Below, piece by piece: positions 20,894-52,263 of a stretch of 52,322 nucleotides of DNA. How positions within the stretch are numbered: position 1 is the first letter of the stretch; each line of letters begins with the position of its first letter. A model generated the notes under the pieces. That model was not told where the DNA came from. It was given only the letters and a program-made list of their open reading frames with translations, and searched no databases. Made by a program: the position numbers and the translations under genes. This DNA comes from a virus (lineage: Duplodnaviria > Caudoviricetes): the IMG/VR virus record IMGVR_UViG_3300037277_000027, positions 1 through 52,322 of that record. One strand, 5' to 3'.

Positions 20894-23584
20894 ATGCTTA
20901 GACTTAAGGAAAGGTATTTAGAAGGAACACCGGGATTCGCAGTGTTCTTTGATAACATCAGAGTTGACCAATACGTTAAAAGTTTTCAAGTAAATATTTC
21001 TTCTGATGGCTCTATAGGTAATGCCTCGGTAGAAATGATTTATGTTCCAGACTTTTATAAGATTGAAACAACCGACCCAGAAACAGGAGATATTATTTCT
21101 GTCGAAATGGGAATAGAAAATATGACGAATGTAAAAATATTTGTAAGAAATATGTTTAGCCTTAAATATATCATGGTTTTTGACGGAAACATTAGGGGTA
21201 AATCACGAACAAAAAGTCCGTCAGGATATACCCTCGTATTTACTGCTAGTGACTATCTGACATGGCTCAACAGAACGATTGTACCGATAGCAATTCCTCT
21301 AGAGAGTCAATTGGCATTAGGTGATACGCTCAAATGGAAGGCTCAAGGTATAGATATCTTTAATACACCTAGTATATCAAGAGTCGCCAATGGAGTATTT
21401 AGAGGTCAAACTCTTCAGACATTTATAGGCAAAATGCAAGAAACTACATTAAAGCTAAATAAGTTCTATGCAGACACGGCAAGCGTTGCTTACTGGGATG
21501 GCGCACAGGGAAGAATAGATATTATGGGTGATATTAGTGATGAGCTCATACAAAACAAGGTTATAGACTTCGTAGTGACTTCGTCAGCTACATTCGTTAA
21601 TTCTATGTACGTCGGTATTAACGATATAGTAAAAAATCTAATGTTTGAGTTCTATCAGGACAGAGATGGAGTAATAAGAATTAAACCTCCATTCTGGAAC
21701 GAAAAGGTTCTATATGACCACGTTATTGAACCTTTACTTATAATGAACATGGCTGAAAACACAAATTGGAATAATTATATCACTAGAGTAGTTATAACTG
21801 GAGGGCTTGAAGACCAGCAAGAAGACTTTGATAATGTGCAGAAATCCATAGTTACACCTTGCGGAGCTTACGTTGGTGATGATGACCCAGCAAAAGCTCT
21901 CTGGACAGATTATCAGTCTGGAGATACAGGAACTATGACTCAGACAATTGCGACTGGCGGCAAAGGTACTTGGCTGTCTTCGCACGAAATGTTCTCTCCA
22001 TATATGCAATACAGAGGATTGAAGACTGATGGCTCTCCGAGATATCACTTTGGGCAAGACTACGCAATGCCAATAGGAACTCCAGTATACCACATAGGCG
22101 CAAAAGGCGTTGCTGCAAGAGGTAATGACCCTCAGGGATGGGGAGATTATGTTCAGGTGAGACTTGTTGAAGGGCCATTTAAAGGGTACTTCATAGTATA
22201 CGCTCACTTATCTGAAATCATTTGTTCGTCTGGAGATATAATAACTGATGGTTCATTGTTAGGTAAGTCAGGGAAGTCAGGGAATGCAAATACTCCTGAT
22301 AATAGAGACCATCTCCATCTGTCAGTATGCCTTAGTCAGGTTGGCGAACGTGGAGGAACTATAGACCCAGATGATTATTTTCAACGCTCTTTGGGCGAAG
22401 ATAATGGTTCTGTGGCCTTTAAGTCATCTGGAAGTTCTTCACTATTAATACCTAGTACAGACGAAAGAAAGTATGGCGTATCAGTATATGATACAGTCCA
22501 ACCTCTTATTAAGTTCTCAAATTCTGCTGTCATAGACCAGAATAGTCAGGGAAAAAGAGCTTTAGAGAAGTATGCTAAGTTCCTGTACAACATGACTAAT
22601 TCAATGGTTGAAACAGCCACACTTCAAACTGTAGCGATGCCTTGGATAAGGCCAGGCTTTAATGTTTGGGTAGACCCTGTTGCCGTGGACAAAGTATACT
22701 ACGTACACTCTGTTAGCCACTACGGCAGTGCAGAAGGTGGTTGTTTCTCTACTCTGAACTTATCTTTAGGTAGAGAAAGAATCAAGTTCACAAATTCTAC
22801 AGGCTTCGCATCGATGAAAAACCAAGGGGGAGAGAATTTATTCATAAGCAAGTTCAACGTACATTCCTCAGACTTCGGCAAAGTTTTAGATAGCGATGCA
22901 GACTTTGCCAAGATAAGAAAACAAATGGTTGGTTTTTATCAGAATGAAACGACTGGTATGATATCAGCAGATAAGAATTCATATTTTAAGGAACTTTATT
23001 ATATAACTAATTCAGACCCAGCTTATAAGAGTTCTTCACAAGCAACACAAACGACAACCACATCGGCACCAGCGCAAGTGACTATAAATGTTGGTGCCGA
23101 CGAATTCAATATAGATGCTTGGCCTGTATCAATGGGGCAAGGCTATGAAGGTGCTCATGTTGAAGAACTTCAAAAAGCCCTAAAGAGAATGGGGACTTAT
23201 ACGGAAGGTTATACCGATCAAGTCTTTGGACAAATAACAAAAAAAGCAGTAATAGATTTTCAAACAAAATTTTCATTAGATTCAGACGGTGTTGTTGGCA
23301 AATTTACTAAAGCTAAACTCAAAGAAGAACTTGGAAAGTTAGGAACAACAACTACAGCAACGGCATCAGGTTCGACAACATCAACAGCAACAAGTGTAAC
23401 AAAACTATCACCCTCGCTGTTTATAGCAGAAAATACTATTGAAGATATACAAACGATATTAAATAGTGCATACGAAAATGCACCAACCGTAGTTAAAGAT
23501 AGAATATCAAAAAACAAAAAAATAATAACTAATTCAGCAGAATATATAAAATTGCACTATATATCCGAGCTAACAAATAAGTGA
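20894..23584 (+). CDS. Baseplate hub protein with inserted M23 peptidase and peptidoglycan-binding domain
   Basis: Hub motifs FEFYQDRDGVIRIKPPFWN and PWIRPGFNV...YYVHSVSH; M23 HFGQD, YAHL, HLHL; PG_binding_1 VEELQKAL...FGQITKKAVIDFQ...DGVVG. Confidence 0.85.
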   Translation: MLRLKERYLEGTPGFAVFFDNIRVDQYVKSFQVNISSDGSIGNASVEMIYVPDFYKIETTDPETGDIISVEMGIENMTNVKIFVRNMFSLKYIMVFDGNIRGKSRTKSPSGYTLVFTASDYLTWLNRTIVPIAIPLESQLALGDTLKWKAQGIDIFNTPSISRVANGVFRGQTLQTFIGKMQETTLKLNKFYADTASVAYWDGAQGRIDIMGDISDELIQNKVIDFVVTSSATFVNSMYVGINDIVKNLMFEFYQDRDGVIRIKPPFWNEKVLYDHVIEPLLIMNMAENTNWNNYITRVVITGGLEDQQEDFDNVQKSIVTPCGAYVGDDDPAKALWTDYQSGDTGTMTQTIATGGKGTWLSSHEMFSPYMQYRGLKTDGSPRYHFGQDYAMPIGTPVYHIGAKGVAARGNDPQGWGDYVQVRLVEGPFKGYFIVYAHLSEIICSSGDIITDGSLLGKSGKSGNANTPDNRDHLHLSVCLSQVGERGGTIDPDDYFQRSLGEDNGSVAFKSSGSSSLLIPSTDERKYGVSVYDTVQPLIKFSNSAVIDQNSQGKRALEKYAKFLYNMTNSMVETATLQTVAMPWIRPGFNVWVDPVAVDKVYYVHSVSHYGSAEGGCFSTLNLSLGRERIKFTNSTGFASMKNQGGENLFISKFNVHSSDFGKVLDSDADFAKIRKQMVGFYQNETTGMISADKNSYFKELYYITNSDPAYKSSSQATQTTTTSAPAQVTINVGADEFNIDAWPVSMGQGYEGAHVEELQKALKRMGTYTEGYTDQVFGQITKKAVIDFQTKFSLDSDGVVGKFTKAKLKEELGKLGTTTTATASGSTTSTATSVTKLSPSLFIAENTIEDIQTILNSAYENAPTVVKDRISKNKKIITNSAEYIKLHYISELTNK

Positions 23585-27183: not shown

Positions 27184-28953
27184 ATGGCATCCGTAAACGT
27201 TCTTGATTTTAATACATTTGTAAGAAGCTATATGATATACAGTATCAAAAAATATATACCTGACCTTGATACTTCGGATAATTCAGCTTTTGACGATTTG
27301 TTTGTGAAGCCAATGCTTCAAATACTTCCTCCAGTTAGTGATACAGTTACAAGCCTTGAATTCAAGATGAACTTAGATAATGCTCCTAACATGACTGTGG
27401 AAGATTTGGATGAGATAGGCAACGGGAATTACTTAATACCTAGGCTTGCTGGTAGCAAAGCTACAGCTGCTGTGACTTTGTCTTACCTAAAGGTTGATCC
27501 GAACAATAACTTAATAATACCTGCTGGCACAACTTTTACAACCGACTCTGGACTCCAGTACCAAGTAAGCCAAAAATATGAGTTCACACCGACTGAGCTT
27601 ATGACAAAATATAATGTGTCTCGCACAACATACGATGTTGTCGTCCCTGCCGAAGCTATTGAAGTAGGCACAGCTTACAATGTAAGTGAAAATCAAATAA
27701 AAAACACAACTACAAAGCTCGGGATAACTCTCGCAAGTATCACAAACAAAGTGCCTGTCACTGACGGTGTAGACTCAGAAACTAACATAGATTATGCTCA
27801 AAGACTCAGAGAATACTATGTATCAAGACAACTAGGGACTAAACCTGGATACAAACAGTTTATATTCTCTAATTTTTCCGAGGTCAACGATATCTACATC
27901 GCAGGCTTTGGGGACGATGAAATGATGAGAGACATAGTCACAGTTGTAAGAAATGGAATTCCACAAACAATGCACATTGGGGGCAAGGTTGATTTTTATA
28001 TAAAAGGCTCTATATTCTCATCAACATCCACAACGTTAACGCTGAACACAGGTAAGCTTAAACTGTCTCAACCCTATAGTCTGATTAGTGCAGGAAGTAT
28101 CACTATAGACAACTTAGGAGATAACTTAAAAACACCTGTTGGAGCATATACAGTAGGTTCTTCAAACGATGCATATATTACTCTTGATAATACAGGGAAT
28201 CAATCCTATGACCCAGCGCTTGTCAATCAGATTAAAGTTACCTATACCTATACTGGAGGATTGGCTCCAATGGAAGAAATCTTCCAAGTAGGTTTGACTC
28301 AAACTAATTTAGATTCTCCATTTAAGAGTATCATACTTGTTTATGAGTCAAACAATGACTCAGTGACTTATGATATTACAAAATATCAGATACTGAGATA
28401 CGATTTGTATGGCAATCCAATAACATTACCAACAGATACTTACTACGGAACATCTCAAGAGTCAGTTAAGTTTCATTGGACAGACATGGATCTTGTTATT
28501 AATGGAACTCCAATAACTATAAGCTATACAACAAATAAGACCTTAAATGACTTGAAAGTGGCTTTTAATGTATCTGAGAATAGAATAATCACTACGGACT
28601 TATTGTTTAAGGAAGCGACACCTTTGTTTATAAATATCGCTTTCGGTGTTAAACTAAGAAGTGGGCAGACTCTCGATGATGTCAAGATAGCGTCTATCAA
28701 CAATTCCATAGCAAATTATTTTAGTATTTTAGCTATGGGGAGTAAAGTGGACGAATCTGATATTATTGGTAATCTGTATAAGGATGCTTCAGTCAATACT
28801 TTTTTAGAATATATAATGTTACCTTTTGATAGCTTTTATGTAGCCACAGACCCAGCAGCACCAATAACACCTCAGAGAGATGGAACATTTATAAAGTCCA
28901 CAAACTTGCAATATCCATCGCTTAATAAGGTATCAATCACAGCAATTCCATAA
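27184..28953 (+). CDS. Baseplate J-like wedge protein
   Basis: IPRLAGSKAT, IIPAGTTFTT, AEAIEVGTAYNV, DGVDSETNIDYAQRL, GGKVDFYI. Confidence 0.9.
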   Translation: MASVNVLDFNTFVRSYMIYSIKKYIPDLDTSDNSAFDDLFVKPMLQILPPVSDTVTSLEFKMNLDNAPNMTVEDLDEIGNGNYLIPRLAGSKATAAVTLSYLKVDPNNNLIIPAGTTFTTDSGLQYQVSQKYEFTPTELMTKYNVSRTTYDVVVPAEAIEVGTAYNVSENQIKNTTTKLGITLASITNKVPVTDGVDSETNIDYAQRLREYYVSRQLGTKPGYKQFIFSNFSEVNDIYIAGFGDDEMMRDIVTVVRNGIPQTMHIGGKVDFYIKGSIFSSTSTTLTLNTGKLKLSQPYSLISAGSITIDNLGDNLKTPVGAYTVGSSNDAYITLDNTGNQSYDPALVNQIKVTYTYTGGLAPMEEIFQVGLTQTNLDSPFKSIILVYESNNDSVTYDITKYQILRYDLYGNPITLPTDTYYGTSQESVKFHWTDMDLVINGTPITISYTTNKTLNDLKVAFNVSENRIITTDLLFKEATPLFINIAFGVKLRSGQTLDDVKIASINNSIANYFSILAMGSKVDESDIIGNLYKDASVNTFLEYIMLPFDSFYVATDPAAPITPQRDGTFIKSTNLQYPSLNKVSITAIP

Positions 28954-31156: not shown

Positions 31157-32533
31157 ATGCCTAATTTTACGTATTACAGTAACTTTGACCCCAATGCAGC
31201 TATTGAGTCAGTAAAATATGCCTCTAATGCATTAGTTCTTGAAGTTGAACTCAATGAAGCTCAGAACATTCTTGATAATAAGATTAAAACTCTTATCAAA
31301 GATAGATTTGGAGATGGCTTCTACAAGACAGGTAGCACTCTTACTTACTCAGGCGGGAATGTTACTCTTTCTAATGACAAGGCCTTCGCTAGTGGAGATA
31401 TAGTTACAATTTCATCATTGACACTTGCTCTTGCAACGGGCGAAAGTGCTTACCTTGATGTCTGGGAACAAGAACTTAATTATACTAACACTATCAAAAA
31501 ATATGGTAACCAACAAGAAGCAAACACTATCACTAACTATATACAAGATGCTAGAACAGGTGAAGAAACAACAAGACGTACTCAGGTTCAATACAATATA
31601 GTGAAGACAACTGGAGTTTCTGGACATACCTACTTGCCTTTGTGCTCTATTGTGTCTGGTTCTCTTGTTGACAACAGAGTCATAGTTGGTAGTTTAGGGA
31701 GCGGAGGTTCTGGTTCTACCAAGAAGCTTTATAGTTCATTCACTGCAACGTTAGCAGGAACTACAAATTGCTTGATAAATCAGCCTGATTACAACCCAAC
31801 CACAGATTATTTAGATGTATTCTACCAAGGTGGAAAACAAACACCAGGAACACATTATACTTTAAATGCTAACAATATCTCCATAGATCTGGCTTTTTCA
31901 ATAGGTGTAGGGGAAGTTATCAATTTTGAAGTAGTTAAAAATATTGCTGTTAGTACTTCGTCAGGAATTGTAATATCTTCGTACCGTAATTCAGTGACGA
32001 CTTCTGGAGCTCAGAGTACAGTAACTATCGGTATTCCTCAGTTCAATCCGACAACAGACTTACTTACTGTTGCTGCAAACACAACACTCCCTCTTCAATC
32101 TGACTTCACTGTCACAGGGACGGGCTCTTCGTCAGCAATAGTTAAAGCATCTGGAACATGGGCTAGTGGTACTCAGTTCGATTTCTTAGTGATAAAGAAT
32201 GTTATTCAGTCTGCAACCGTTGATGGTTCTATACTTGTTGCAGGAACTGTTCCTGTGAGTGCTTTGAATGATGAATTACAAAGCAGACTTGAAGTTTCAA
32301 TAAGCACTTACAGGTCTGCAAAAGATTCTAATGGTAAATTCACTCAAATTGATAAAAAAAGGTCCAATGGAACTTTATTTTCAAGATCAATATTATCCGG
32401 TGGTACAAGTCCTCTGTATACATCAAGGACAGAAACTCTTTATGCTACAAATGGCTCGACAGTCACAGGGACTAAAATATATACACTCAGCTATGACTCA
32501 GACGGAGATATGATAAGCGAGGTGTTAAACTAA
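31157..32533 (+). CDS. Tail fibre (proximal) protein
   Basis: VLEVELNEAQ, AYLDVWEQE, ETTRRTQ N-terminal motifs; two repeats (YNPTTDYLDV / FNPTTDLLTV). Confidence 0.7.
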   Translation: MPNFTYYSNFDPNAAIESVKYASNALVLEVELNEAQNILDNKIKTLIKDRFGDGFYKTGSTLTYSGGNVTLSNDKAFASGDIVTISSLTLALATGESAYLDVWEQELNYTNTIKKYGNQQEANTITNYIQDARTGEETTRRTQVQYNIVKTTGVSGHTYLPLCSIVSGSLVDNRVIVGSLGSGGSGSTKKLYSSFTATLAGTTNCLINQPDYNPTTDYLDVFYQGGKQTPGTHYTLNANNISIDLAFSIGVGEVINFEVVKNIAVSTSSGIVISSYRNSVTTSGAQSTVTIGIPQFNPTTDLLTVAANTTLPLQSDFTVTGTGSSSAIVKASGTWASGTQFDFLVIKNVIQSATVDGSILVAGTVPVSALNDELQSRLEVSISTYRSAKDSNGKFTQIDKKRSNGTLFSRSILSGGTSPLYTSRTETLYATNGSTVTGTKIYTLSYDSDGDMISEVLN

Positions 32534-35500
32534 TGGGCGATAAAAATATTCTATATGAACACGGTATCGTTGGTGGTGGAATCAATTCGAGTACCGTTAG
32601 AGGGTATAAAAAGCAAATAGCCAATCTTACATCTATTGCAGATATATACGACAGAGTCCCTTCTGGAGCGCAAGCTGTTATGTATGATTTGTTTGACGGA
32701 ACAAACGACAGATCTGCTGGGCTCATAGAGAATTATAAAGGGATAGCTCAGTCGGCATATAGTTCTGGAACTTCAACGTTCACTGTTGACACTGTTACTG
32801 GCTTGGCTGTTGGCGAAGAAGTCACTGTTCAAGATGACGTAAATAAAGAAGTTAAAATTGTTCAGAGTTTTGCAGCAGGCACTACTGGAATAAATGTCGG
32901 AGGAGCAAAAACTGTTACTGCTACAGGAGCGACAGTTGCTACAAGTGGAACATTTTCTAGGACTGCAAAAACCATGACAGCAGTTGGTAATGCTCAAATA
33001 GCTACAGCTCAATCTGTTATAGGGTCTTCAAGTATATTTCTTGATGGGTCTGGGGATTACGTTACAGCTCCAGACGATAATGACTGGAATTTAGGTACTT
33101 TTGATTTTACATTAAGTGCTTATGTTAAATTCGCAGCATTGCCCTCAACGTTGACAGCTATGACTATATTTTCTCAGTATGCAGATACAAATAATTATTG
33201 GAGAACAGAAATATATAATAATGCAGGAACATATCAGATTAGCTTTGTAGCCAGATCTGGAGGTACTTTGCTAATTAACAATACTCAAAACATAACTTTG
33301 ACTACTAATACTTGGTATCATTACGAGGTTTGTAGGACAGGAACTGTTTTAAAATACTTCTTAAATGGTATTCAGCAAGGAGCAGATGTACCCTTTAACT
33401 TCACACTTCCAGATGTGGCAAGTACACTATCTATAGGCAGATACAACTCTGTTGTAGGCAATGAATATTACGTTAATGGATACTTGGATGAGATGCATAT
33501 TTCCAGAGGTATTGCTCGCCATACGTCAACGTTTACACCGTCAGTTGTGGCTACTATCCCTGATCCGTATACAGTGCTTTTGCTTCATTGCGAAGGAACT
33601 AATGGCTCAACAACTTTCACTGACGACAATACAACGTATACAGTGCCTCCTAAGTTTGGAGCTGGGATGGCTACAATTGGAGCATCGGCGCAATATCTAA
33701 GCACTCCGCACAGCACAGACTTATCTCTGACTACAGGGGACTGGACTATAGAAGGGTGGCTTTTTGGTCAAGCTTCAATAAGTAAGATTCTTGTTCACAA
33801 AGGTAGCAACGGTTCCGCAGGGACATATTCTTTCATATTGTTTATTGATAGTGGAAATCTTTTAGATTTTCAGCTTTATGATGGTGTTGAAAAATCTGTG
33901 AATATAGCAAGAGCCTCTGTATTAACAACTGGATGGAACCATGTCGCTGTTGTGCGTTCTGGCAACACAGTAACAATGTATGTTAATGGTGTTAGCGTAG
34001 GAACACCTCTCACTGGTGTAGGAACATTATCTGATAATGCGGCATGGCCTTTGTCTATAGGTGGAGCATCTTATGCTTCAATATATTCAATAAATAGTTA
34101 TTTAGATGAGTTCCGAATATCAAAAGGAATCGCAAGATACACAGCAAATTTTACACCACCATCCTTGCCAAGCACAACAGACACATATACTAAGCTTCTT
34201 TTGCACATGGATGGAACGAATGGTTCCACATCATTCCCAGACTCTAGCGAGCAAGTTGGTACAGGAACTACAGTAACGTTTACAGCGGCAACAACAAATT
34301 CTTACAAAAATAAAGCTGTGGTGTATCGTTCACTTTATAATATTTCCAATTACAAGCTCAAAATGGGAGACTGGGCAAGTCTTAGAGCTTTTGGTGGGAA
34401 GACAGTTACTGCTGTTGGAGATGCTAAAATTGCAACGACCACACCACTTAGGCTCGCCACAAAAACAGTGACACCAGTAAATGTAACAACTATTACCAGT
34501 GGCGCAGTTAGAGGGGCTAAAACATTAACACCTCATGGTAATGCTCAAGTGTCAACATCACAGTTTAAGTTAGGGACAGGATCAGCACTTCTTGACGGTA
34601 CTGGGGACTATATTTCAACACCAGACCATACAGATTTCGACTTCGGCTCTAGCGACTTTACTATAAGATGCTTTATTTATCCTGTAGCTAAAGGCTCTAT
34701 GATTGTGACTCACGGTGGTGCAGGGTATGCTTCTGCAAATCAAATAGGTTGGTACTTTCAGATAGATGTAAACTCTTTGACATTCGCAAAAATAGATACG
34801 TACAACGGAAGTCCAGTGTCCTCAACATTTTCATACACAGTTCCTCTCAGTCAGTGGACACACTTGGAAGTTGTGAGAACTGGAAACACACTGAAATTAT
34901 TTGTAGATGGAACACAACAGGGTGGAGATAAAGCTTTTACTGGCTCTATAGTGGACTCAACACAGATATTATCTATTGGTAGTGATATGGATGGCAACGG
35001 TGGATTCAATGGTTACATTGATGAATTAGAGATATCTAAAGGGATAGCAAGACATACTACAAATTTCACTCCGCCAACAACAGCATTAACATCAGATCAA
35101 TATACTGTTCTTTTAATGCACTCAGATGGTACTAATGGCTCGACTACATTTGCAGATGACGTGACTGGAGGAACTATAGGACCTAAATTTGGTACTGCAA
35201 TGGCGACATTTGATGGAACAGGTGATTACTTGTCAGTTCCAGACAGTACAGACTTCGCATTCACCAATGGCAACTTTACAATGGAAGGTTGGGTATGGCT
35301 AGGTTCCTTACCTTCAACCAGTGTCGATATGATGGTCTTTACACAAAAGACAGCATATAACTCGAACAATCAGATATCTGTATATATCAGTAATCTTGCA
35401 GGTGTCATGAACATGAGGACAATATTCACATATGATGGAGTTACTGGAATTTCTCACAACACTCCGATACCTAGCATAAATGCTAACACTTGGTATCACA

Positions 35501-36570
35501 TAGCTTCTGTGAGAAATGGCACTAGTGTTTTAAATTTCTTTAATGGTATCCTTCTTGGGACTTATAACATAGGAACTAACTCACTATTTGACAGCACAGC
35601 AACATTTAAGATTGGTGGATTATCAGACGGTGCATTCGTAGCAGACTTTTTTGGCTACATGGACGACGTGCATATATCCAAAGGAATAGCTAGATACACT
35701 GCTGACTTTACGGTGCCGACATCTCCAGCAAGTGCTGATGCTTACACAGTTCTGCTACTTCATATGGATGGAACTAATGGAGGTACGACATTTACAGATG
35801 ATGCAGGTTCTTTAACTCCTAAGTTTGGGACAGGAATGTTAGTTCTCGATGGTAATGGGGACTATTTGACAATCCCAGACTCAGCTGACTTCTCATTCGG
35901 GAGTGCAGACTGGACTATTGAGGGTTGGTTTAATTTTGCCTCGTTCGCATCGTTTGCAGACCCTTCACTATTTGGTCAGTTTGTTGACTTAAACAATAGA
36001 TTTCATATAGGTTATCACTCAGGTTCTAGTCAGATATATGTCATAGCTTATTCTGGAGGAACCGCAATTTTAGATGGGACAGCGAGTGCAACGTTAGCGC
36101 TGAATGTTTGGTATCACATAGCTGTGCAGTCACGGTCTGGAGCTATCGAAGTTTATTTGAACGGAACTAAACTTACGAACTCTGGAGACATGACCAGTGG
36201 TACTTTGCTTGATGTTGCAGCTCCTGTGGAGATAGGTAGACTTAACTATTCGTCAAACTACGGATACGTTTATGGCAGGATGGATGATTTAAGAGTTTCG
36301 AAGGGTATCGCAAGATATACGTCGAATTTTACGGCTCCATTATCACAACTAACACCAGACGACTACACTGTTTTATTGCTTCATATGGACGGAACTAACG
36401 GATCAGTATTGTTCTCGGATGATTTAGGAACAGCAATCCCTCTTCTTTCAACAGATATACGTTACTCTGTAACACCACCACTTGGAACGGCTAAGGAATT
36501 GGCTGTATGGGTAGAACACGAAACAGACACAACAGCAGCAAGTTACACTGTTAACATAGTGGAAAACTAA
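32533..36570 (+). CDS. Receptor-binding/tail fibre protein with five LamG (concanavalin A-like) domains
   Basis: Five copies of DFT/DWT...W(Y/N/T)H...Y(L/I/M)D(E/D)xxxS(K/R)GIAR(Y/H)TxxFT...LLLH. Confidence 0.85.
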   Translation: MGDKNILYEHGIVGGGINSSTVRGYKKQIANLTSIADIYDRVPSGAQAVMYDLFDGTNDRSAGLIENYKGIAQSAYSSGTSTFTVDTVTGLAVGEEVTVQDDVNKEVKIVQSFAAGTTGINVGGAKTVTATGATVATSGTFSRTAKTMTAVGNAQIATAQSVIGSSSIFLDGSGDYVTAPDDNDWNLGTFDFTLSAYVKFAALPSTLTAMTIFSQYADTNNYWRTEIYNNAGTYQISFVARSGGTLLINNTQNITLTTNTWYHYEVCRTGTVLKYFLNGIQQGADVPFNFTLPDVASTLSIGRYNSVVGNEYYVNGYLDEMHISRGIARHTSTFTPSVVATIPDPYTVLLLHCEGTNGSTTFTDDNTTYTVPPKFGAGMATIGASAQYLSTPHSTDLSLTTGDWTIEGWLFGQASISKILVHKGSNGSAGTYSFILFIDSGNLLDFQLYDGVEKSVNIARASVLTTGWNHVAVVRSGNTVTMYVNGVSVGTPLTGVGTLSDNAAWPLSIGGASYASIYSINSYLDEFRISKGIARYTANFTPPSLPSTTDTYTKLLLHMDGTNGSTSFPDSSEQVGTGTTVTFTAATTNSYKNKAVVYRSLYNISNYKLKMGDWASLRAFGGKTVTAVGDAKIATTTPLRLATKTVTPVNVTTITSGAVRGAKTLTPHGNAQVSTSQFKLGTGSALLDGTGDYISTPDHTDFDFGSSDFTIRCFIYPVAKGSMIVTHGGAGYASANQIGWYFQIDVNSLTFAKIDTYNGSPVSSTFSYTVPLSQWTHLEVVRTGNTLKLFVDGTQQGGDKAFTGSIVDSTQILSIGSDMDGNGGFNGYIDELEISKGIARHTTNFTPPTTALTSDQYTVLLMHSDGTNGSTTFADDVTGGTIGPKFGTAMATFDGTGDYLSVPDSTDFAFTNGNFTMEGWVWLGSLPSTSVDMMVFTQKTAYNSNNQISVYISNLAGVMNMRTIFTYDGVTGISHNTPIPSINANTWYHIASVRNGTSVLNFFNGILLGTYNIGTNSLFDSTATFKIGGLSDGAFVADFFGYMDDVHISKGIARYTADFTVPTSPASADAYTVLLLHMDGTNGGTTFTDDAGSLTPKFGTGMLVLDGNGDYLTIPDSADFSFGSADWTIEGWFNFASFASFADPSLFGQFVDLNNRFHIGYHSGSSQIYVIAYSGGTAILDGTASATLALNVWYHIAVQSRSGAIEVYLNGTKLTNSGDMTSGTLLDVAAPVEIGRLNYSSNYGYVYGRMDDLRVSKGIARYTSNFTAPLSQLTPDDYTVLLLHMDGTNGSVLFSDDLGTAIPLLSTDIRYSVTPPLGTAKELAVWVEHETDTTAASYTVNIVEN

Positions 36571-36586: not shown

Positions 36587-39346
36587 ATGGCTTTAAGAAA
36601 TGGCATACAAGTTTTAAGTGGAAATTACACATTGCAAACTACATTAGGAGATGGCGGACGCAAGATTGTCCGCCTAAGCAATGGTTGGTTTGTGACGGCT
36701 ATCTTGGGGACTTCAAGCATACTCTACTATGTTTCCAAGGATGACGGAGCTACATGGACTCAACTTTGCTATTCCACTGCATCTTCTTTGTCAGGATGGG
36801 CATTGGCGAGTTACGGCACAACTGTTTATTGTATAATTAGTGTTGCTGCAGCAACAACTATCACTTTGAGAAAGTTTGATGCATCGACAGTATCCAATAT
36901 CGATCAGACAGCAGCGTCAACAATAGACACTGCCCAAACAGCATTTGGAAATGGATGTTCGATCGTGTCAGATTCAACAGGGATATTACATGCTTGTTGG
37001 ACAAGCAAAAATTCCAATTACCCAAACTCTTTCAACTTAAGATATTCTAAGAGCACAGATGGGGGTATTACCTGGGCAACACCTACGCAATTATATACAC
37101 TGAATACTGCTGGACAAAATGACACTAATCCATCAATAGCAGTAAGATCTAATGGCTATCCTTTTATTGCTTTTGAATATGTCATAGGTTCAACTTACTT
37201 TATAGCTGAAGAACGTTGGAATGGAACAACGTGGAACAGCAGTCCTGATGTAACCCCTTCAGGATTAGCTTATGCTCAAAGCAATGCTTGCACATGTATA
37301 ACGTCTGATGATGTTATACATGTGGTGTGGCAAGGTAAAGATGCTACTGACTCCAGTGTTTATAATATAAGATATTCAAAATCTACCGACCTAGGAGTCT
37401 CTTGGTCAACACCATTAAAACTTACTAGTGGCAATACGTATGACCAAACAGCACCAACTATCACTCGTGATAAAAATAATGTTCTTTATGTTACATGGAG
37501 TGGTAATGATTCATCCACAAAGGGTCAGATAAAGAAAATGGCATATGTCAATGGATCTTGGAGTGGAATAACAACATTTACTAACAATGCGACATATAAG
37601 ACTTATCAAGTTTCAAGTTGCATGAACTATACAGATTTTACAGATCCTATCTGCGTCTACATTGAAGATGGAGTATCAGTTAAATTTAGAGGTGGTTTCG
37701 TTGGTGCTGATGCGAGTGTTACGGCAGATACTTACATTGCAAACACTGCGTACGACACTAGCGATAATGGTCAAAGGAAGCTTGTAAAGCTCTCTAATGG
37801 TTGGCTAATTGCTATGGTTGTTGAATTGAACACAAGAATAAGATTCTACAAATCAACTGACAACGGTGTTACTTGGACATATCTATGTTTTAGAACAATA
37901 ACAACTTCAACATATTTTACATCCATAACATCTTACAATAACACTGTATATTATGCATTGACCACATCGACATCTAGTGGTGCATATATGGGTAAGTTTG
38001 ATGCAACTATAGTGTCCAATGCAGATCAAACATCAACAGAAGTGACAATGGACACCTCTCAAACTGCATTGAATGATATTTGTATAATTTCTGATGCAGT
38101 GGGAACATTATATTCTGCATGGACGAGTACTAATGCAACATATCCTAACTCTTGGAATATTAGATACTCAAAAAGTACTAATGGAGGAGCTTCGTGGGCT
38201 GCCCCAACACAAATTACAACGCTCAACACTAATAACTTTAACTACGCTTCATGTCACATGGTTCTTACTTCAGCGAACAATCCAGTCATAGTATCGTCGA
38301 CCAGAGAAGGCGCTTCAGCTTATTATGTGAGATCGTTCACTTACACAGGGTCTGTTTGGAACGCTGTTGTTACTGTAGAGTCAGCAGGTATTTACCCTCG
38401 CGGAAGAAATTCTGTAGTTACAGATACTAGTGGCATTATACACGCTGTATTCTTTGGTGCTGACTCTACAGATTCTGCAAAGAACAATGTAAGGTATAGT
38501 AAATCTACAGACAATGGAGCTACATGGTCTTCAGCATTAAAACTCACATCTGGTAATGCTTATGACCAAAATGTTCCATCTATATGCTATAACTCAGCAG
38601 GAGATCTTGCTGTAGTGTTCTCTGGAGGAGCTTCTGGATTTGCCGCAAGAAATATAAAGGTAATCAAATATTCTGGGGGGAGTTGGGGTTCTGCAGCTCA
38701 AGTAACAAATGAATGCGGGGCTTCAAACTTAACAGATCCTTCAACGATATCTTACTTTGGAAGTTTAACCGACCCAGCATTTATTTATGCTGACACTAGT
38801 GTAGGGGCCGTGAAGTATTTCAATTCTTATCTAGCAGTAACTGCGACAGTTACTATGAATAGCTTGAATTATGCAGCATTAGCTTGGACTATTTCTAATC
38901 CTGTTGGAGGAGCAATAACAGCTTGTAGACTTAAAATAAATGGAACATTGAAACAAACTTACACAACTGGACTTACAAGTCCTCTATCGTATACAATAAA
39001 TATAAGTGATCTGAATGTAGGCTCGAACACTATAACTATAGAGGCTGATGTTGTCAGTGTATTAGCTACAACAAAGAGTTTAACAGCTTCAAAAGTAGCG
39101 AATTCGTGGAGCGTAGATGAAACAACATTCAGTGTCAATGGATATCTTAGCATTGTCGGAGCTTCATCTAATGAGAGCTATATAGCTGCAACCAAAACAA
39201 ACTCAGGACTTACAGCCAATACAGGAGAAAATCAGCTCATTGCAGTTCCTGGGACTGGTGCTAAAATCACTGAAAAATTAACGCTAACAAGAAGTTCATC
39301 GAGTATAGACAAAGGCTTAACAAAAATAACAGGTGCTCTGGGTTAA
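36587..39346 (+). CDS. Tail fibre/spike protein with two BNR (Asp-box) beta-propellers
   Basis: Repeated YSKSTDxGxTW; duplicated RK(I/L)V(R/K)LSNGW start; Ig-like linker; C-terminal LTRSSSSIDKG. Confidence 0.8.
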   Translation: MALRNGIQVLSGNYTLQTTLGDGGRKIVRLSNGWFVTAILGTSSILYYVSKDDGATWTQLCYSTASSLSGWALASYGTTVYCIISVAAATTITLRKFDASTVSNIDQTAASTIDTAQTAFGNGCSIVSDSTGILHACWTSKNSNYPNSFNLRYSKSTDGGITWATPTQLYTLNTAGQNDTNPSIAVRSNGYPFIAFEYVIGSTYFIAEERWNGTTWNSSPDVTPSGLAYAQSNACTCITSDDVIHVVWQGKDATDSSVYNIRYSKSTDLGVSWSTPLKLTSGNTYDQTAPTITRDKNNVLYVTWSGNDSSTKGQIKKMAYVNGSWSGITTFTNNATYKTYQVSSCMNYTDFTDPICVYIEDGVSVKFRGGFVGADASVTADTYIANTAYDTSDNGQRKLVKLSNGWLIAMVVELNTRIRFYKSTDNGVTWTYLCFRTITTSTYFTSITSYNNTVYYALTTSTSSGAYMGKFDATIVSNADQTSTEVTMDTSQTALNDICIISDAVGTLYSAWTSTNATYPNSWNIRYSKSTNGGASWAAPTQITTLNTNNFNYASCHMVLTSANNPVIVSSTREGASAYYVRSFTYTGSVWNAVVTVESAGIYPRGRNSVVTDTSGIIHAVFFGADSTDSAKNNVRYSKSTDNGATWSSALKLTSGNAYDQNVPSICYNSAGDLAVVFSGGASGFAARNIKVIKYSGGSWGSAAQVTNECGASNLTDPSTISYFGSLTDPAFIYADTSVGAVKYFNSYLAVTATVTMNSLNYAALAWTISNPVGGAITACRLKINGTLKQTYTTGLTSPLSYTINISDLNVGSNTITIEADVVSVLATTKSLTASKVANSWSVDETTFSVNGYLSIVGASSNESYIAATKTNSGLTANTGENQLIAVPGTGAKITEKLTLTRSSSSIDKGLTKITGALG

Positions 39347-39397: not shown

Positions 39398-42022
39398 ATG
39401 CCAAAGATTACTATGCAAGAGTTAGACCCTAGCGTTTCTTCACAAATAGCTGCCATAGGTCAATCGAGTGCTATGATTCTTGAGATGAATAGAGAGCTCG
39501 CAAACGTCCAAGCCATCTTAGATGTAGATAATCGTTGTTTGCCTAATACAGGTAAGTTCTACGATTTGATGGATGGTACGAATAATTATAGTAATGGGTT
39601 GCTTGATACATCAGCGACAACTTTAAGTTCAGCGCCAAGTGTCGGAGCATCTTCATTAAGCGTTGTAACGTCTTCTGTATTCACGGTAGGCGAAAAAGTC
39701 ACTGTATACGACGATGCTGGGCAGGAGGATGTGACAATTCAGACGGTTACTCCTGAAACTATTATAAATCAGGGAGCAACAAAAACCTTGACTCCGATAG
39801 GTAGTGCAGTGATATCTACAGCTCAGTCAAAAATAGGAACAGCGAGTGGACTTTTTAATGGTACTTCGAGTTCAGTGTATACTCCAAAATCCACAGATTT
39901 TGATTTTGGCACGGGAGACTTTACTATAGAAATGTATCTTTACTGCACTAGTTTGACAATACAAGGTGGTTACTCTAGAAGAATCGTCGAATATGTCGCG
40001 AGCCCATCTACTGGTGCTGTCAGTGGCGAATATCATCTTTATATTGATCAAGCGACAGGCAAGTTGGCTTTCGAATCAAACACAACTGTAGTTTTGGATA
40101 CAACTGCCTTCCCAACTAATGCCTGGACACACATCGCTATAGTGAGAAGCGGGACTACTACAAAAATGTATGTTGGAGGAACAGTAAAGGCAACAGCTAC
40201 TGATACTTATAATTATTCTAGCTCCACAGCATATATGTATCTAGGATCAGCAAATAATATAGGAGGCTTCTATAGTGGATATATTGATGAGTTAAGGATT
40301 TCTAAGGGAATTGCAAGATATACCTCAAACTTTACCCCACCCACAGTAGCATTGGTTACAGATGCATTTACGAAGCTACTTCTTCATTTTGAAGGAGCTA
40401 ATAATTCAACAGTGTTTGTAGATTCTGAAGAATTTGTTGTCTCTGGGGTAATGACATTGGTTTCACCAACAGTTAATGCTTACAAAGTTACGGGGAAGGT
40501 AGCTAGAAGTAATGTTATTATCTCTGGAGGAAAGATGAAATGCGGAAACATTACATCTGTAGGCCCTCAAGATAAAAGCGCTGGAGTTATCGTGTCAACA
40601 GGAACCCCAGTAATATCGTCTAATGCACAAAGATATTTGGTTAGGGATATTTATGGGTATCTCTATACTGTTATGGAAAAGACAGTAAGTACTTTTACCC
40701 AGATTTTTTGTTTGAAATCTACTGATAATGGAGCAACGTGGACAGATTTAGGTTTTCCACAAGTAGCATCTTACAATCAACACAATCCATCTATTGCTAC
40801 TGACTCACTAGGTAATGTTTATGTTGTATGGAATGGAATGGATTCTGTAGATACTGCTTTCTATAATATAAAATATGCAAAATATTCATCAGGAGCATGG
40901 AGTGCAATAACGAAGTTAACTAGTGGTAGCACTCTAGGACAACAACAGACTCCAGCTATAATGGCAGATTCTTTAAACAACATACATGTAACATGGACTG
41001 GTGGGGACACTATAGATCCAGGTAAATTTAATGTCAGATACATCAAATATAACGGAACTTCATGGGGAACTCCAGTGAAGATTACTAGTGGTAACTCTTA
41101 TGACCAAATCAATCCGTCTATCGCTATTGACACAACAAATAATATACACATTGTTTGGTCAGGAATGGATGCCACAGAAGCAACTTATTCTAATATAAGA
41201 TACAGTAAAAGTGCAGACAATGGGGCGACATTCTCAGCTCAGGCTAAGATTACAACTGGTATTGCTGGACAGAGTCTTACGCCTTGTATTATCGCAGACT
41301 CAACCAACGCTCTCCATGTTGCATTCTCTGGATGGGATGGTACAGATGTTGCTTACAACATCAAGTACATTAAATACAGTGGTTCTTGGGGCGCAATAAC
41401 AAAGCTCACATCAGGTGCGACGTATGCGCAGAGTGCGCCATCTATCACTGTTGACAGTAGTAACAACGTATACATTGTGTGGTACGGTACTCATGGCGCA
41501 AGTACCAGCATAAACCAAATAAGGAAAATAGTTTATGCAGGATCTTGGGGTTCAGTTATAAATGTAACTAGTGCTGCTTCGGATCAGACATTACCATCAA
41601 CGTGTGCTAACTATCAAGTCTTTACAGACCCTCTTTTAGTCTGGAAAGATAATGTCAATTCTAGCATAGATTTTAGAGGTATTTTTACAGGGAATATACT
41701 GTCTCCCCTTCTTGTCTCTAAAGCACGATATAACATAACCTCTCGCTCAGGCATTGCTACAGAACTTGCAGCGTGGGTGACGCACGAAAAAGACGCGGGA
41801 TTCAATACCTCAGCTAATGTTTCTATCGTAGATACTTTAGCCAACGAGAGTTTTGCATCAGCAACGAAAACAACATATAATATAGATAGTTCTTCTGAAG
41901 AAGATGCTTACTATGCAAGTGTTGGTACTGCACAAGAACGAATCACTTTTGAGCTTGTCTTAACAAGAAGTTCTGGAGCAATCGACAAAGGTGTTCTAAA
42001 AGTTCTTGGAGCTGTAGATTAA
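39398..42022 (+). CDS. Tail fibre protein: one LamG plus one BNR propeller
   Basis: N-terminal anchor paralogous to the 32533 ORF (YDLxDGTN...VGExVTVxDD); LamG; KSTDNGATW repeats. Confidence 0.8.
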   Translation: MPKITMQELDPSVSSQIAAIGQSSAMILEMNRELANVQAILDVDNRCLPNTGKFYDLMDGTNNYSNGLLDTSATTLSSAPSVGASSLSVVTSSVFTVGEKVTVYDDAGQEDVTIQTVTPETIINQGATKTLTPIGSAVISTAQSKIGTASGLFNGTSSSVYTPKSTDFDFGTGDFTIEMYLYCTSLTIQGGYSRRIVEYVASPSTGAVSGEYHLYIDQATGKLAFESNTTVVLDTTAFPTNAWTHIAIVRSGTTTKMYVGGTVKATATDTYNYSSSTAYMYLGSANNIGGFYSGYIDELRISKGIARYTSNFTPPTVALVTDAFTKLLLHFEGANNSTVFVDSEEFVVSGVMTLVSPTVNAYKVTGKVARSNVIISGGKMKCGNITSVGPQDKSAGVIVSTGTPVISSNAQRYLVRDIYGYLYTVMEKTVSTFTQIFCLKSTDNGATWTDLGFPQVASYNQHNPSIATDSLGNVYVVWNGMDSVDTAFYNIKYAKYSSGAWSAITKLTSGSTLGQQQTPAIMADSLNNIHVTWTGGDTIDPGKFNVRYIKYNGTSWGTPVKITSGNSYDQINPSIAIDTTNNIHIVWSGMDATEATYSNIRYSKSADNGATFSAQAKITTGIAGQSLTPCIIADSTNALHVAFSGWDGTDVAYNIKYIKYSGSWGAITKLTSGATYAQSAPSITVDSSNNVYIVWYGTHGASTSINQIRKIVYAGSWGSVINVTSAASDQTLPSTCANYQVFTDPLLVWKDNVNSSIDFRGIFTGNILSPLLVSKARYNITSRSGIATELAAWVTHEKDAGFNTSANVSIVDTLANESFASATKTTYNIDSSSEEDAYYASVGTAQERITFELVLTRSSGAIDKGVLKVLGAVD

Positions 42023-47973: not shown

Positions 47974-48164
47974 ATTATTACTCCGTTAGTGTCAACAATG
48001 ATGAACTTAATTACATGGCATTTCACAACAAATTCCAAACAACATTCTTTACAAAAAAATCTTTTGCTCGCACTTCCACCCAAAAAACCAATAGTATCTT
48101 TCCTGTTGCAGTCGGGACATAGCATTCTGAATTTAACTTTAAGTCTATCCTTTGTTGCTGCCAT
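47958..48164 (-). CDS. Small zinc-ribbon protein
   Basis: CPDC...FFCKEC; AGGAGGA RBS. Confidence 0.65.
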   Translation of the reverse strand: MAATKDRLKVKFRMLCPDCNRKDTIGFLGGSASKRFFCKECCLEFVVKCHVIKFIIVDTNGVIIKEPD

Positions 48165-48179
48165 TAATAATCATCCTCC

Positions 48180-50066
48180 TTAAGAAGAAAATCCGTTCAA
48201 CATATCTAGTTGTGCACTCATCTGGTCAATACTTTTATTTAGCGTTACTGTTGTCTTGCTTTGCCTTTTTAAAGCATTGCTGTCTGTACAATGTACTCTG
48301 CTTTTGCCGAACTCGTCTCTTGCGTTGTAATAACGATTAAGAGCTTGTTTATGAAAGAACTTAGCATTAATGTCCATAATGTCTATAACTTTAGTAACCT
48401 TTTTACCGTGAGACTCTTTCATGAAGTCTGGAATATATCCAAGCAAATCTCCGTAGTCACAGTTTCTAGCACCTCTACCTATTCTTTGAATAAGTGTTAT
48501 ATCACTGTTCCCTGCACCACCAAGAACAACTCCTGAGATTATAGGGATATTTACTCCTGCATCAAAAATAGTTGAGCCTATCATTATTTTAAACTCACCT
48601 TTTCTAAATTCGGTAATTGCACTTTGTCTCATTTTGTCAGGAGTGTCTCCCCAGATAAACCGGATGTCGCCAAGAGGTATTCCGTTGTCTACAAACATTT
48701 CTCGTAGTCTGTGCCCATGATCTATGTGTTGTATGAGTACAAGAACGTGTCTACCTTCATTTAAAAGTTCAATGGTGGGAGTTACTATCATTGTTTGATT
48801 ACGTTCTTCATTCTCGGTTATACAAGCTTTGTACATCTCTTGATAATTAAGATCAGCATCAAAATCATTATAAAGTCGTTGATTATAAGTTTTGTAAAGA
48901 ATTTCTAATTCGCAAAGCCTACCTTTTTCAATTTGTTCCTCAGCAGTTGTCGTAAAAAGTATTGGTCCACTTCCTGCCATTAATTTTATAGTTGCTCCAT
49001 CTGTTCTTCTTGGAGTTGCAGAAAGGAATATCCTATAAGGAGCTTTACATTCGTTGAGTACTTCATCCCAAGTTTCAGTTCCAACTGCTTGTGATTCATC
49101 AACCATTAAAAGTTTACACGTATTTCGGAGCCAATCAAGCAAAAACGGCTTAGTTTTCTCATCTTTTAGCCTTGCTGAGAGCGATTGTATCGTAGCGACC
49201 ACTACAGGGGTGTCTAGAGGCAAGATGTTTTCCGAAGGTAACTTTACATTACCGAACCATCCATCTTTGATTGTAGAGCATCCTGTGAGACCAATTATTC
49301 CAGACTCAAATTCTTTTTTTGCATCATCAAGTAAAGTTTTCTTATTCGCAACAAAAAGAGCAGGAACTCCATGAGCAGCTACTAATCTCTTAGCAAGAAT
49401 TGCTGTTTTGCCAAATCCTGTAGGTGCTTTACAGATTCCTCTTTTTCCTGAGACACATTTTAAAACTGCTTCAACTTGATCTGGATCTGGAATAAGTCCA
49501 TCATCAACGACCCAACTAAATTGAGGTTTTGGATTTGTGTCATACATTTCCATAACTTTGAATTCGATGCCTTTTTGAATAAGAACAGATTTTACTTCAC
49601 TAAGTAAGCCTGTGGGAAATGAACCATCAAATTTATGATATAAATTTATGTACCCATCCCACTTACCTGATTTATATTTTGCTGAATGCAAGGCCCCTTT
49701 GAAAAAATATCGGGTGACTGCTTCAATTTCTTTATAAGGTAATTCTTGTGAACCTTTCTTTAAAAAAGATGTAATAACTCCACACCTTATGTTTGCTGGT
49801 AAGAAACCTGTATCTGTTGGAGCTGTTACTCTGGCTCTCCATTCTTTGAAGGACTTATCTATGTATAACAATTTTTTGACTGGAATTAAAGCGATGTTTA
49901 TCCAGTCAACTTTGTCTTCATGACAATACCAAGAACCTTGCCTATAAAAAACATCCGACCCTGCAAATATTTGCATTAGTTCGGAGTTTTCATCAGAATT
50001 ATCAGGTTTTATTTCGATGTGCTTAAAATCAGTGTAACTTACGCTGATCACTAGTATCCTTACCAC
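48180..50066 (-). CDS. Superfamily 2 DExD/H helicase (UvsW/XPB-like)
   Basis: APTGFGKT, VDESQ, LSATP, FDAGVNIP, QRIGRGAR. Confidence 0.92.
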   Translation of the reverse strand: MVRILVISVSYTDFKHIEIKPDNSDENSELMQIFAGSDVFYRQGSWYCHEDKVDWINIALIPVKKLLYIDKSFKEWRARVTAPTDTGFLPANIRCGVITSFLKKGSQELPYKEIEAVTRYFFKGALHSAKYKSGKWDGYINLYHKFDGSFPTGLLSEVKSVLIQKGIEFKVMEMYDTNPKPQFSWVVDDGLIPDPDQVEAVLKCVSGKRGICKAPTGFGKTAILAKRLVAAHGVPALFVANKKTLLDDAKKEFESGIIGLTGCSTIKDGWFGNVKLPSENILPLDTPVVVATIQSLSARLKDEKTKPFLLDWLRNTCKLLMVDESQAVGTETWDEVLNECKAPYRIFLSATPRRTDGATIKLMAGSGPILFTTTAEEQIEKGRLCELEILYKTYNQRLYNDFDADLNYQEMYKACITENEERNQTMIVTPTIELLNEGRHVLVLIQHIDHGHRLREMFVDNGIPLGDIRFIWGDTPDKMRQSAITEFRKGEFKIMIGSTIFDAGVNIPIISGVVLGGAGNSDITLIQRIGRGARNCDYGDLLGYIPDFMKESHGKKVTKVIDIMDINAKFFHKQALNRYYNARDEFGKSRVHCTDSNALKRQSKTTVTLNKSIDQMSAQLDMLNGFSS

Positions 50067-50196
50067 CCTTCTCTATTTTCTCGCCATTGATTAAGGATTC
50101 ACCGATCTGCTTTAGAACATGACCTGCGGCATTAATTGTTGCAGTTATAACTATCTCTAAAAGTTCTGCTTTAAATTGTTTGCTCAATCTCGCCAT
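50029..50196 (-). CDS. Small hypothetical protein
   Basis: MARLSKQFKAELL...; GGAGG RBS before ATG 50196. Confidence 0.55.
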   Translation of the reverse strand: MARLSKQFKAELLEIVITATINAAGHVLKQIGESLINGEKIEKGGKDTSDQRKLH

Positions 50197-50229
50197 TGTA
50201 TATGACCTCCGCATCTTCTATATATATCT

Positions 50230-50257
50230 ATTGTACACTATATATATAAAAAGTCAA
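50230..50257 (-). promoter_or_regulatory. sigmaA-type promoter for the helicase operon
   Basis: TTGACT-16bp-TACAAT on the minus strand. Confidence 0.6.
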
Positions 50258-50258
50258 G

Positions 50259-50296
50259 TTTAAATATAGAAGAGGGGAAACCCCTCTATATTTAAA
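50259..50296 (-). terminator. Hairpin/terminator
   Basis: TTTAAATATAGA-AG-AGGGG-AAA-CCCCT-CTATATTTAAA, bulged stem. Confidence 0.55.
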
Positions 50297-50561
50297 CGTT
50301 GTCAATGTTTCTAAAATCTATGTCCGATTCCTCTTGCAAATCGTTTTCTTCTGCGACAGTGTGTAATTTCTCATAAACATTTGATGCAGTCCGTTCAAGA
50401 CCTTTCCAAACTACTAAGTAGAACAATGCCTTCATAGCCTTTTCAAGCATTTTGTGACACTCTCTTTTGATTACTTCTTTAAGACTGTCAGGTATCTTCA
50501 ACCTGTTCACTTCCTTTCTCTCGTTGACACGAATAAAGATTCCATAGCGCCTTTGATGCAA
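50292..50561 (-). CDS. Hypothetical protein (true start probably near 50510)
   Basis: GAAAGGAAG precedes VNRLKIPDSLKEV; overlaps the upstream stop codon. Confidence 0.55.
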   Translation of the reverse strand: MHQRRYGIFIRVNERKEVNRLKIPDSLKEVIKRECHKMLEKAMKALFYLVVWKGLERTASNVYEKLHTVAEENDLQEESDIDFRNIDNV

Positions 50562-51904: not shown

Positions 51905-51973
51905 GACTCTTTCCCTCCTTAGTAAATCAAAGAAAATGTATCACGATTTCGTGATACTCTCCTCGTTAGATTT

Positions 51974-52180: not shown

Positions 52181-52221
52181 TTCATTCTCACCCCCATATT
52201 ACTTATACCTAAAAAGTTCAT

Positions 52222-52263
52222 TAAAATAAGCAAGCACAAGGGATTTTGTGCTTGCTTATTTTA
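52222..52263. terminator. 18-bp stem terminator
   Basis: TAAAATAAGCAAGCACAA-GGGATT-TTGTGCTTGCTTATTTTA. Confidence 0.8.

Follow-up and report, generated by a model that had tools for sequence, protein, structure and literature searches.

Analysis of the virus record IMGVR_UViG_3300037277_000027, of which all 52,322 nucleotides were examined and are referred to here as the window, revealed a gene for a 1345-amino-acid (aa) protein, P0001, in which LamG domains appear to be threaded into one another. P0001 is probably a virion tail- or baseplate-associated adhesin carrying five LamG (concanavalin-like lectin) domains, and the unusual order of its segments is, in our judgement, likely to be best explained by nested insertion, in which complete LamG domains would be lodged inside other domains of the same family.

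The Pfam model Laminin_G_3 (PF13385) matched P0001 with 280.5 bits against a curated cut-off of 27.6 (E = 4.7e-84), distributed over five stretches scoring 56.5–78.2 bits each; the sixth and last Laminin_G_3 stretch of the record lies in P0002, the protein encoded from position 39398. In addition, the five LamG bodies could be aligned with one another over approximately 180 aa, and PHROG matches of P0001 fell into LamG-bearing families annotated as 'baseplate wedge subunit' and 'virion structural protein'. The recurring elements were named lead hairpin (A, consensus KTxTxxGNAQIxTxQ), body (B, from KFG to GIARYTxNFTPP) and closing strand (Z, YTxLLLHxDGTNGSTTF). Along P0001 they follow the order N-terminal domain, A2 A1 B1 Z1 B2 Z2 (block 1), middle segment, A5 A4 A3 B3 Z3 B4 Z4 B5 Z5 (block 2) and C-terminal tail (Table 1).

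Scanning of the translation located the lead motif KT.T..[GN] at aa 126, 146, 623, 644 and 663 (nucleotides 32908, 32968, 34399, 34462 and 34519), PKFG at aa 373, 884 and 1096 (nucleotides 33649, 35182 and 35818) with no lead motif before it, LL[LM]H at aa 349, 555, 860, 1074 and 1281, and GIAR[YH] five times. The two bodies that come straight after a lead motif start at aa 161 and 678, while a YTxLLLHxDGTNGS strand stands after each of the five bodies; the hairpins are thus stacked two and three deep before the two blocks, and three bodies are hairpin-less. A first-pass annotation of the window had described such stacks of two and three lead strands, an equal number of strands and bodies in both blocks, and bodies resuming at PKFG near 33649, 35181 and 35818. 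All of these features were recovered, the PKFG sites at the positions given above, with five hairpins, five bodies and five closing strands in total. The module consensus that it had considered common to P0001 and the 39398 protein holds for the latter in approximation only, as P0002 reads KTLTPIGSAV...NGTSSSVY. When the protein was shuffled 5000 times, the lead motif occurred 0.10 times on average and at most three times, never five as observed, whereas PKFG (three observed) and LL[LM]H (five observed) averaged 0.0085 and 0.0105; because the shuffles never reach the observed counts, these are not attributable to chance.

Table 1. Segments of P0001 and further genes of the window, with positions in the window (A, lead hairpin; B, LamG body; Z, closing strand; ORF, open reading frame; HMM, hidden Markov model).
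Feature	Residues (aa)	Position	Strand	Basis or remark
P0001 gene, tail/baseplate-associated	1345 in total	32533..36570, stop codon included	+	ORF list, translation
N-terminal domain	1-125	32533..32907	+	common to P0001 and P0002
A2, orphan lead hairpin of block 1 (KTVTATG...)	126-145	32908..32967	+	proposed first strands of B2
A1, lead hairpin joined straight to B1	146-160	32968..33012	+	AlphaFold2 strands, construct residues 28-32, 36-38
B1, LamG body 1	161-345	33013..33567	+	body HMM 2.4e-80, Pfam match
Z1, closing strand YTVLLLHCEGTNGSTTF and short crossing segment NTTYTVP	346-372	33568..33648	+	DNA repeat family D1; AlphaFold2 strands, construct residues 228-232, 242-244, 249-252
B2, LamG body 2, begins PKFG, no own hairpin	373-551	33649..34185	+	body HMM 5.5e-73
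Z2, closing strand	552-580	34186..34272	+	AlphaFold2 strand, construct residues 434-438
Middle segment	581-622	34273..34398	+	aligns with the P0002 stretch after its LamG
A5, outermost orphan hairpin of block 2	623-643	34399..34461	+	proposed partner B5
A4, second orphan hairpin of block 2, degenerate	644-662	34462..34518	+	proposed partner B4
A3, lead hairpin joined to B3	663-677	34519..34563	+	confident AlphaFold2 strands, construct residues 99-103, 107-109
B3, LamG body 3	678-856	34564..35100	+	Pfam, body HMM, AlphaFold2
Z3, closing strand and crossing segment	857-883	35101..35181	+	
B4, LamG body 4, begins PKFG, no own hairpin	884-1070	35182..35742	+	
Z4, closing strand and crossing segment	1071-1095	35743..35817	+	
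B5, LamG body 5, begins PKFG, no own hairpin	1096-1277	35818..36363	+	
Z5, closing strand	1278-1305	36364..36447	+	
C-terminal tail	1306-1345	36448..36567	+	by eye like a C-terminal stretch of P0002
P0003, BNR/Asp-box propeller repeats, apparently two propellers		36587..39346	+	
P0002, one LamG, BNR/Asp-box propeller repeats, apparently one propeller		39398..42022	+	
Major head protein		6360-7409	+	PHROG match
Tail sheath		10702-12111	+	PHROG match
Baseplate wedge subunit		27184-28953	+	PHROG match
Tail protein		31157-32533	+	PHROG match
Minus-strand large ORFs		48180-50066, 50507-51109, 51110-51904	-	

Relatives were collected in two protein searches, from which 120 of 1123 and 120 of 2345 matches were taken. 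Among the 119 new proteins of the second search, the order was exactly A B Z A B Z A B Z in 71 and three times Z A B in 13, so that both (A B Z)n and (Z A B)n arrays occur. The consensus of 143 canonical spacers (...VSLLLHMDGT-NGSTTFT-DSS-KTV-TANG-NA-QI-STT-QSKFGGSSAYFDG) leads from Z over a short loop to A and then directly to KFG. As the end of Z therefore neighbours the start of A, the two ends of an A-B-Z unit would lie side by side, as is needed of a guest domain, and the A|KFG junction of a host can be read from the sequence as a tight turn able to take such a guest. The gap between the Z window and the next body measured 21–24 residues in 558 of the 888 bodies with an upstream Z and at most 10 in 21 of them, which makes the hairpin a nearly constant part of the LamG domain. 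B2, B4 and B5 belong to these 21 short-gap bodies, at 9, 9 and 7 residues, respectively, compared with the usual 19–24. Close relatives of P0001 were found neither in phage records nor in viral contigs, and the best protein matches among those listed shared 36–41% identity over part of its length. It was also observed that the N-termini of the (A B Z)x3 family (e.g. P0124, P0130, P0135 and P0149) have in common a stretch of about 25 aa, …SFTVAAxAxVLRxKKG, before the first hairpin, with a weak hairpin score in a few members.

According to the proposed nesting, the turn that leads from A to KFG in a host LamG domain would accommodate A-B-Z units as guests, giving A2[A1-B1-Z1]B2-Z2 for block 1 and A5[A4[A3-B3-Z3]B4-Z4]B5-Z5 for block 2; in the sequence order of both blocks, the putative host segments do flank a complete guest domain. 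Two short crossing segments would connect each inner domain with its host, and each block would return its own two ends together, lodged between the N-terminal domain, the middle segment and the C-terminal tail. The likely outcome would be two stiff, branched lectin arms that bind glycans of the host surface, whereby we infer the sheet joined by an orphan hairpin, the stiffness of the arms, glycan binding and the scaffold. Nesting, as already put forward in the first-pass annotation, is favoured because the ends of the A-B-Z unit are adjacent, because hairpins and bodies balance in other proteins as well, because A2 forms confident strands in the block 1 model, and because of a weak docking pass. 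AlphaFold2 left A5 and A4, the putative partners of the last and the fourth body, unplaced.

Inspection by eye of the 21 short-gap cases revealed that five are compact loops still containing the hairpin (P0053, P0059, two bodies of P0069, and P0120). The remaining ones belong to P0001 and P0052 (three each), P0076 and P0011 (two each), P0128, P0118 (counted a second time as locus L109), P0159, P0006 and P0026, and extra hairpins were read by eye in every protein with a genuine short-gap body. The complete 450-aa protein P0159, which shares 39% identity with block 1 across 96% of it, shows the order A A B Z B Z, as does P0118, whereas in P0128 a normal first domain is followed by Z A A B Z B, and P0076 is arranged as Z A A A B Z B Z B. 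In P0052, three hairpins detected by matrix and one more seen by eye precede three hairpin-less bodies, with two ordinary domains between, and P0071 combines an extra front hairpin with a late body preceded by neither A nor Z. A scan of viral contigs with P0076 as query gave no matches. Across 336 proteins or ORFs with at least two bodies, both a hairpin stack and a hairpin-less body were recorded in 7, a hairpin-less body alone in 8, a stack alone in 2 and neither in 319 (Fisher p = 2.5e-9, with relatives treated as independent); this automated table includes one duplicate and missed the compact stack of P0076.

AlphaFold2 models of the two blocks were judged by the predicted local distance difference test (pLDDT), the predicted template modelling score (pTM) and strand positions, the pairing of a hairpin with a particular body lying outside these readouts. 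Block 1 (aa 120-585) was folded with a 44-row alignment, the A2 columns of which were filled by nested relatives only, while the other rows were two-domain segments cut from viral contigs and starting at their own hairpin. The resulting model reached a mean pLDDT of 88.0 and a pTM of 0.81, with A2 strands at construct residues 10-13, 15-17 and 20-23 (block pLDDT 94 and 91). In the same model, strands at residues 242-244 and 249-252 of the segment after Z1 fit the two-stranded connector that the first-pass annotation had envisaged. Block 2 (aa 566-1345), folded with an alignment of 30 full-length homologues, reached a mean pLDDT of 75.4 and a pTM of 0.48, with A3, the three bodies and Z3-Z5 confident; the middle segment and the C-terminal tail, folded without the N-terminal domain, stayed below a pLDDT of 50. 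As both models are built of beta strands and Foldseek matched laminin LG and neurexin LNS domains among solved structures (top match 5xau, E = 2.7e-15, followed by 2wjs and 3qcw, at 10–13% identity), the predicted fold is a jelly-roll beta-sandwich. Among the top 50 predicted viral structures, near-full-length matches (at least 392 columns) superposed with a root-mean-square deviation (rmsd) of at least 10.9 Å and a template modelling score of at most 0.43, compared with an rmsd of 2.0–5.2 Å for one-domain matches.

Docking was addressed in a split-chain test, in which ESMFold2 was given A5 and A4 (aa 615-662, no alignment) and B4-Z4-B5-Z5 (aa 878-1310) as separate chains. The pair scored 0.46 (runs of 0.32, 0.46 and 0.49; best of three controls 0.01), with contact agreement of at least 77% between runs and a partner pLDDT of at least 60. 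It thereby passed a mark with a pass rate of 58 of 80 among solved complexes and 2 of 110 among mismatched pairs, although passes at or below 0.60 comprise 7 of the 80 solved complexes and both passing mismatches. Thus, the models lend weak support to docking of A5-A4 to the hairpin-less bodies, and since the two pieces stem from one chain of a well-known fold, the pass may partly mirror likeness to solved LamG structures.

An analysis of hairpin-body covariation over 873 canonical units was rejected as having no usable power, because the signal came mostly from chain-adjacent positions and the positive controls failed without them. In its split test, the top-ranked body was the hairpin's own in 150 of 335 cases (89 expected by chance), and within the blocks of P0001 and P0159 nest partners were obtained for A1, A2, A3, A5 and both P0159 hairpins, but not for A4. 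Once the adjacent positions had been removed, A1 and A3 preferred B4, and the own hairpins of P0052 and P0076 put their own bodies last.

Several observations weigh against nesting. In the block 2 model, aa 566-658, which comprise the middle segment, A5 and most of A4, had a pLDDT below 50 and formed no strands, while B4 and B5 were modelled at a pLDDT of about 80–95 with both hairpins unplaced. Taken literally, this is the outcome that the first-pass annotation had named as speaking against its proposal, namely PKFG bodies that fold without the orphan strands; the failure is not decisive because the stack region of the alignment was 30–55% filled with misaligned residues. In the block 1 model, A2 could be packing on domain 1 instead of B2. 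Two of the five hairpins are degenerate: in a position matrix built on 298 canonical lead hairpins (99.99th percentile of the null at 7.3), A1 (aa 145), A3 (aa 662) and A5 (aa 622) obtained strong scores of 34.8, 34.8 and 28.8, whereas A4 (aa 643) and A2 (aa 125) scored a marginal 8.0 and 7.0, at the edge of the null. A4 moreover resembles QTVTPETIINQGAT, which stands before the own hairpin of the sole LamG of P0002, yet that protein has one LamG body, and caution is therefore advisable in counting weak hairpins. The surveyed examples share kinship and do not represent independent events. Furthermore, the automated table holds eight proteins with a hairpin-less body and no detected stack. By eye, four of these are the compact-loop false calls P0053, P0059, P0069 and P0120, and P0076 is the missed stack; P0006 carries a bacterial-type strand pair, P0026 shows the reverse order and L027 starts at a contig end. 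In this reverse order, found in P0011 (twice), P0026 and L054:1438-3507, a hairpin-less body precedes the double hairpin, which comes after the next closing strand and in front of the body that follows. Hairpins and bodies remain equal in number, but the missing hairpin would need to come from further along the chain, an order that a simple nest fails to explain. The expectation of matched counts among homologues was borne out in P0159, P0118, P0076, P0128, P0052 and P0071.

Some of these points would suit a chain of beads on a string, in which the PKFG bodies are LamG domains without hairpin and the stacked KTxT repeats form a separate beta-hairpin linker or shaft, perhaps a stalk that arises only in the assembled oligomer and touches the bodies little. 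The confident B4 and B5 next to unplaced A5 and A4, the degenerate A2 and A4, the A4-like stretch of P0002 without a second body and the regular period of 19–21 aa in the stacked KTxT repeats are all compatible with such a chain. However, it offers no reason for the matching of hairpins and bodies in P0159, P0118, P0128, P0076, P0052 and P0071, leaves the near-universal hairpin of the family unexplained, and predicts neither the high pTM and confident A2 strands of block 1 nor a weak docking pass against the bodies alone. We consider it unlikely.

Alternatively, each body might receive one swapped hairpin from a neighbouring domain or from another subunit of an oligomer without any nesting, in which case the Z after a body would belong to the next body, as in canonical Z-A-B. 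The backward hairpin supply needed in P0011, P0026 and L054 would be met by such a donation, the existence of both (Z A B)n and (A B Z)n arrays indicates that Z can serve either neighbour, and tail fibres and receptor-binding proteins are commonly trimers. Nevertheless, the final Z stands behind its body both in P0002 and in the 71 proteins (of 119) with the order A B Z A B Z A B Z, and the block 1 model is already confident as a monomer, which leaves donation without nesting quite improbable. That equal counts arose by accident, through local copying of a short motif and separate hairpin losses, and are devoid of structural meaning is very improbable, for although the counts are small (two and three), two hairpins are weak and the surveyed relatives are of common ancestry, motif numbers far exceed those of the shuffles, stacks are found in the same proteins as hairpin-less bodies (both in 7, hairpin-less bodies alone in 8, stacks alone in 2, neither in 319), and a parallel rule holds for the Z strand.

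This parallel rule concerns the Z|A junction, where 25 of 41 short spacers without Z (24 proteins) come after a spacer with at least two Z. Together with P0006, it suggests that displaced strands balancing the number of bodies are a wider habit of the family. The frequent pattern is Z Z A B, followed by a 29-aa spacer with A but no Z, and then B (P0010, P0017, P0020, P0023, P0030, P0035, P0048, P0066 and P0123; loci L057, L059 and L097). In P0005, P0009 and P0022, several stacked closing-type strands precede several strand-less domains. P0006 (about aa 965-1364 and 1416-1794) contains, twice, a bacterial-type LamG body that breaks off near profile position 30 and later resumes, the interruption being a complete phage-type A-B-Z unit.

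Beyond the nesting proposed for P0001, a broader rule can be formulated, which as a whole we hold to be plausible but short of probable. Every LamG body would need exactly one A and one Z, which could be placed anywhere along the chain. The Z|A turn (Z Z A B A B) and the A|KFG turn could each take up whole units, and so could a loop within a body, the case of P0006; nests of the A A B Z B Z type could become three or four deep, and hairpins could be taken from the following spacer, as in P0011, P0026 and L054. Phages would in this way use same-family insertion and strand donation to obtain stiff, branched multi-lectin arms, and nests such as P0159 would be duplicated and re-inserted as ready-made modules.

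With respect to the origin of the nests, the A4-Z4 segment is 41% identical to block 1, the highest value among 43 rows, and A2 aligns with A4, so that block 2 looks like a copied two-domain nest inside a third LamG domain. At the DNA level, the copies within P0001 are 60–70% identical and hence old. A quick maximum-likelihood tree of 54 bodies from 16 chosen proteins (the nested ones and seven canonical ones) left most forks unresolved, but grouped the hairpin-less B2 and B4 with those of P0076 and P0011 (Shimodaira-Hasegawa-like approximate likelihood ratio test, 87). In view of this grouping and of the identity between block 1 and A4-Z4, inheritance and duplication of nests may account for much of the pattern. 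The recurrent insertion hotspot suggested earlier thus retains the use of the same junction at different depths in several proteins, while repeated insertion as such may give way in large part to copying, with the tree being weak.

Comparison of P0001 with P0002 by BLASTP aligned aa 12-125 with aa 17-124, inside an alignment of 32% identity, and aa 566-617 with aa 343-388; the C-terminal stretches are alike by eye. The last BLASTP segment of the comparison scored 41 bits. The N-terminal domain of P0001 (aa 1-125) had no match in the PHROG search. Because the N-terminal domain and the segment after LamG align and the C-termini look alike, the LamG blocks of P0001 and the LamG and propeller of P0002 would appear to be interchangeable modules in a common anchor scaffold.

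The record, for which completeness is estimated at about one third, carries all large genes from about 1.8 kb to 48 kb on the plus strand. P0001 is surrounded by a tail/baseplate module, with head, sheath, wedge and tail genes upstream on the same strand, the nearest being those of the baseplate wedge subunit and the tail protein. Based on PHROG matches to a major head protein, a tail sheath, a baseplate wedge subunit and a tail protein, the source is classified as a contractile-tailed phage, and a DNA-level search of phage records gave no resemblance to the 52,322-base record. Upstream, at 20894-23584, lies the gene of a probable tail-associated cell-wall hydrolase, an 896-aa protein with a metallo-endopeptidase-like stretch (aa 369-515) and an endolysin-like one (aa 714-858), while a 1595-aa ORF at 13789-18576 remained without match in the PHROG search. 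From about 48000 to 52322, GC skew and AT skew flip sign and the large ORFs turn to the minus strand, a switch that marks the end of the structural module.

If nesting is correct, a simple sequence rule would be at hand for finding discontinuous LamG domains that profile searches call tandem repeats, and the packing of five lectin domains into two rigid arms, with their ends back at one anchor, would be explained. P0159, with its 450 aa, would offer a small natural test case for same-family insertion and for structure predictors, which gave opposite answers here with alignment quality. The general understanding of phage receptor binding would be unchanged.

Nested domain insertion of the form A1-B1-C-B2-A2 is a general but uncommon phenomenon, described up to six levels deep in cyanobacterial RNA polymerase (PMC13114784). 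Such nests and the arrangement proposed for P0001 have in common an interrupted host and a guest that is itself a host. The word 'concanavalin' has no occurrence in that survey, and its passages on nesting name no concanavalin-like or LamG case (PMC13114784). In contrast to the nests of these passages, host and guest in P0001 would belong to the same family, the guest would be permuted and closed by the strand after its body, and the insertion site would be the first hairpin turn. Among the papers listed by literature searches, none dealt with LamG nesting in phage proteins.

Among structurally characterized proteins, the laminin LG and neurexin LNS domains share the LamG fold at the 10–13% identity given above, and in these entries the domains follow one after another along the chain. 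The closest solved relative by sequence is the single-domain S-layer protein 4qvs (3e-20). Concanavalin A, a jelly-roll lectin, is circularly permuted, with an altered strand order and the fold kept; it represents one permuted domain, whereas P0001 would contain permuted units inside other units. The nearest comparison is provided by the tandem LamG arrays of phages, including the cyanophage proteins annotated as 'gp7 baseplate wedge initiator' and 'virion structural protein'. These common arrays belong to the same family, consist of the same A, B and Z elements and likewise occur in virion tail or baseplate proteins, and the block 1 model superposes well with their single domains and poorly near full length (rmsd of 2.0–5.2 Å and at least 10.9 Å over at least 392 columns, respectively). 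Whereas such arrays repeat whole units, as (Z A B)n or (A B Z)n, the hairpins of P0001 are split off from their bodies and stacked ahead of them.

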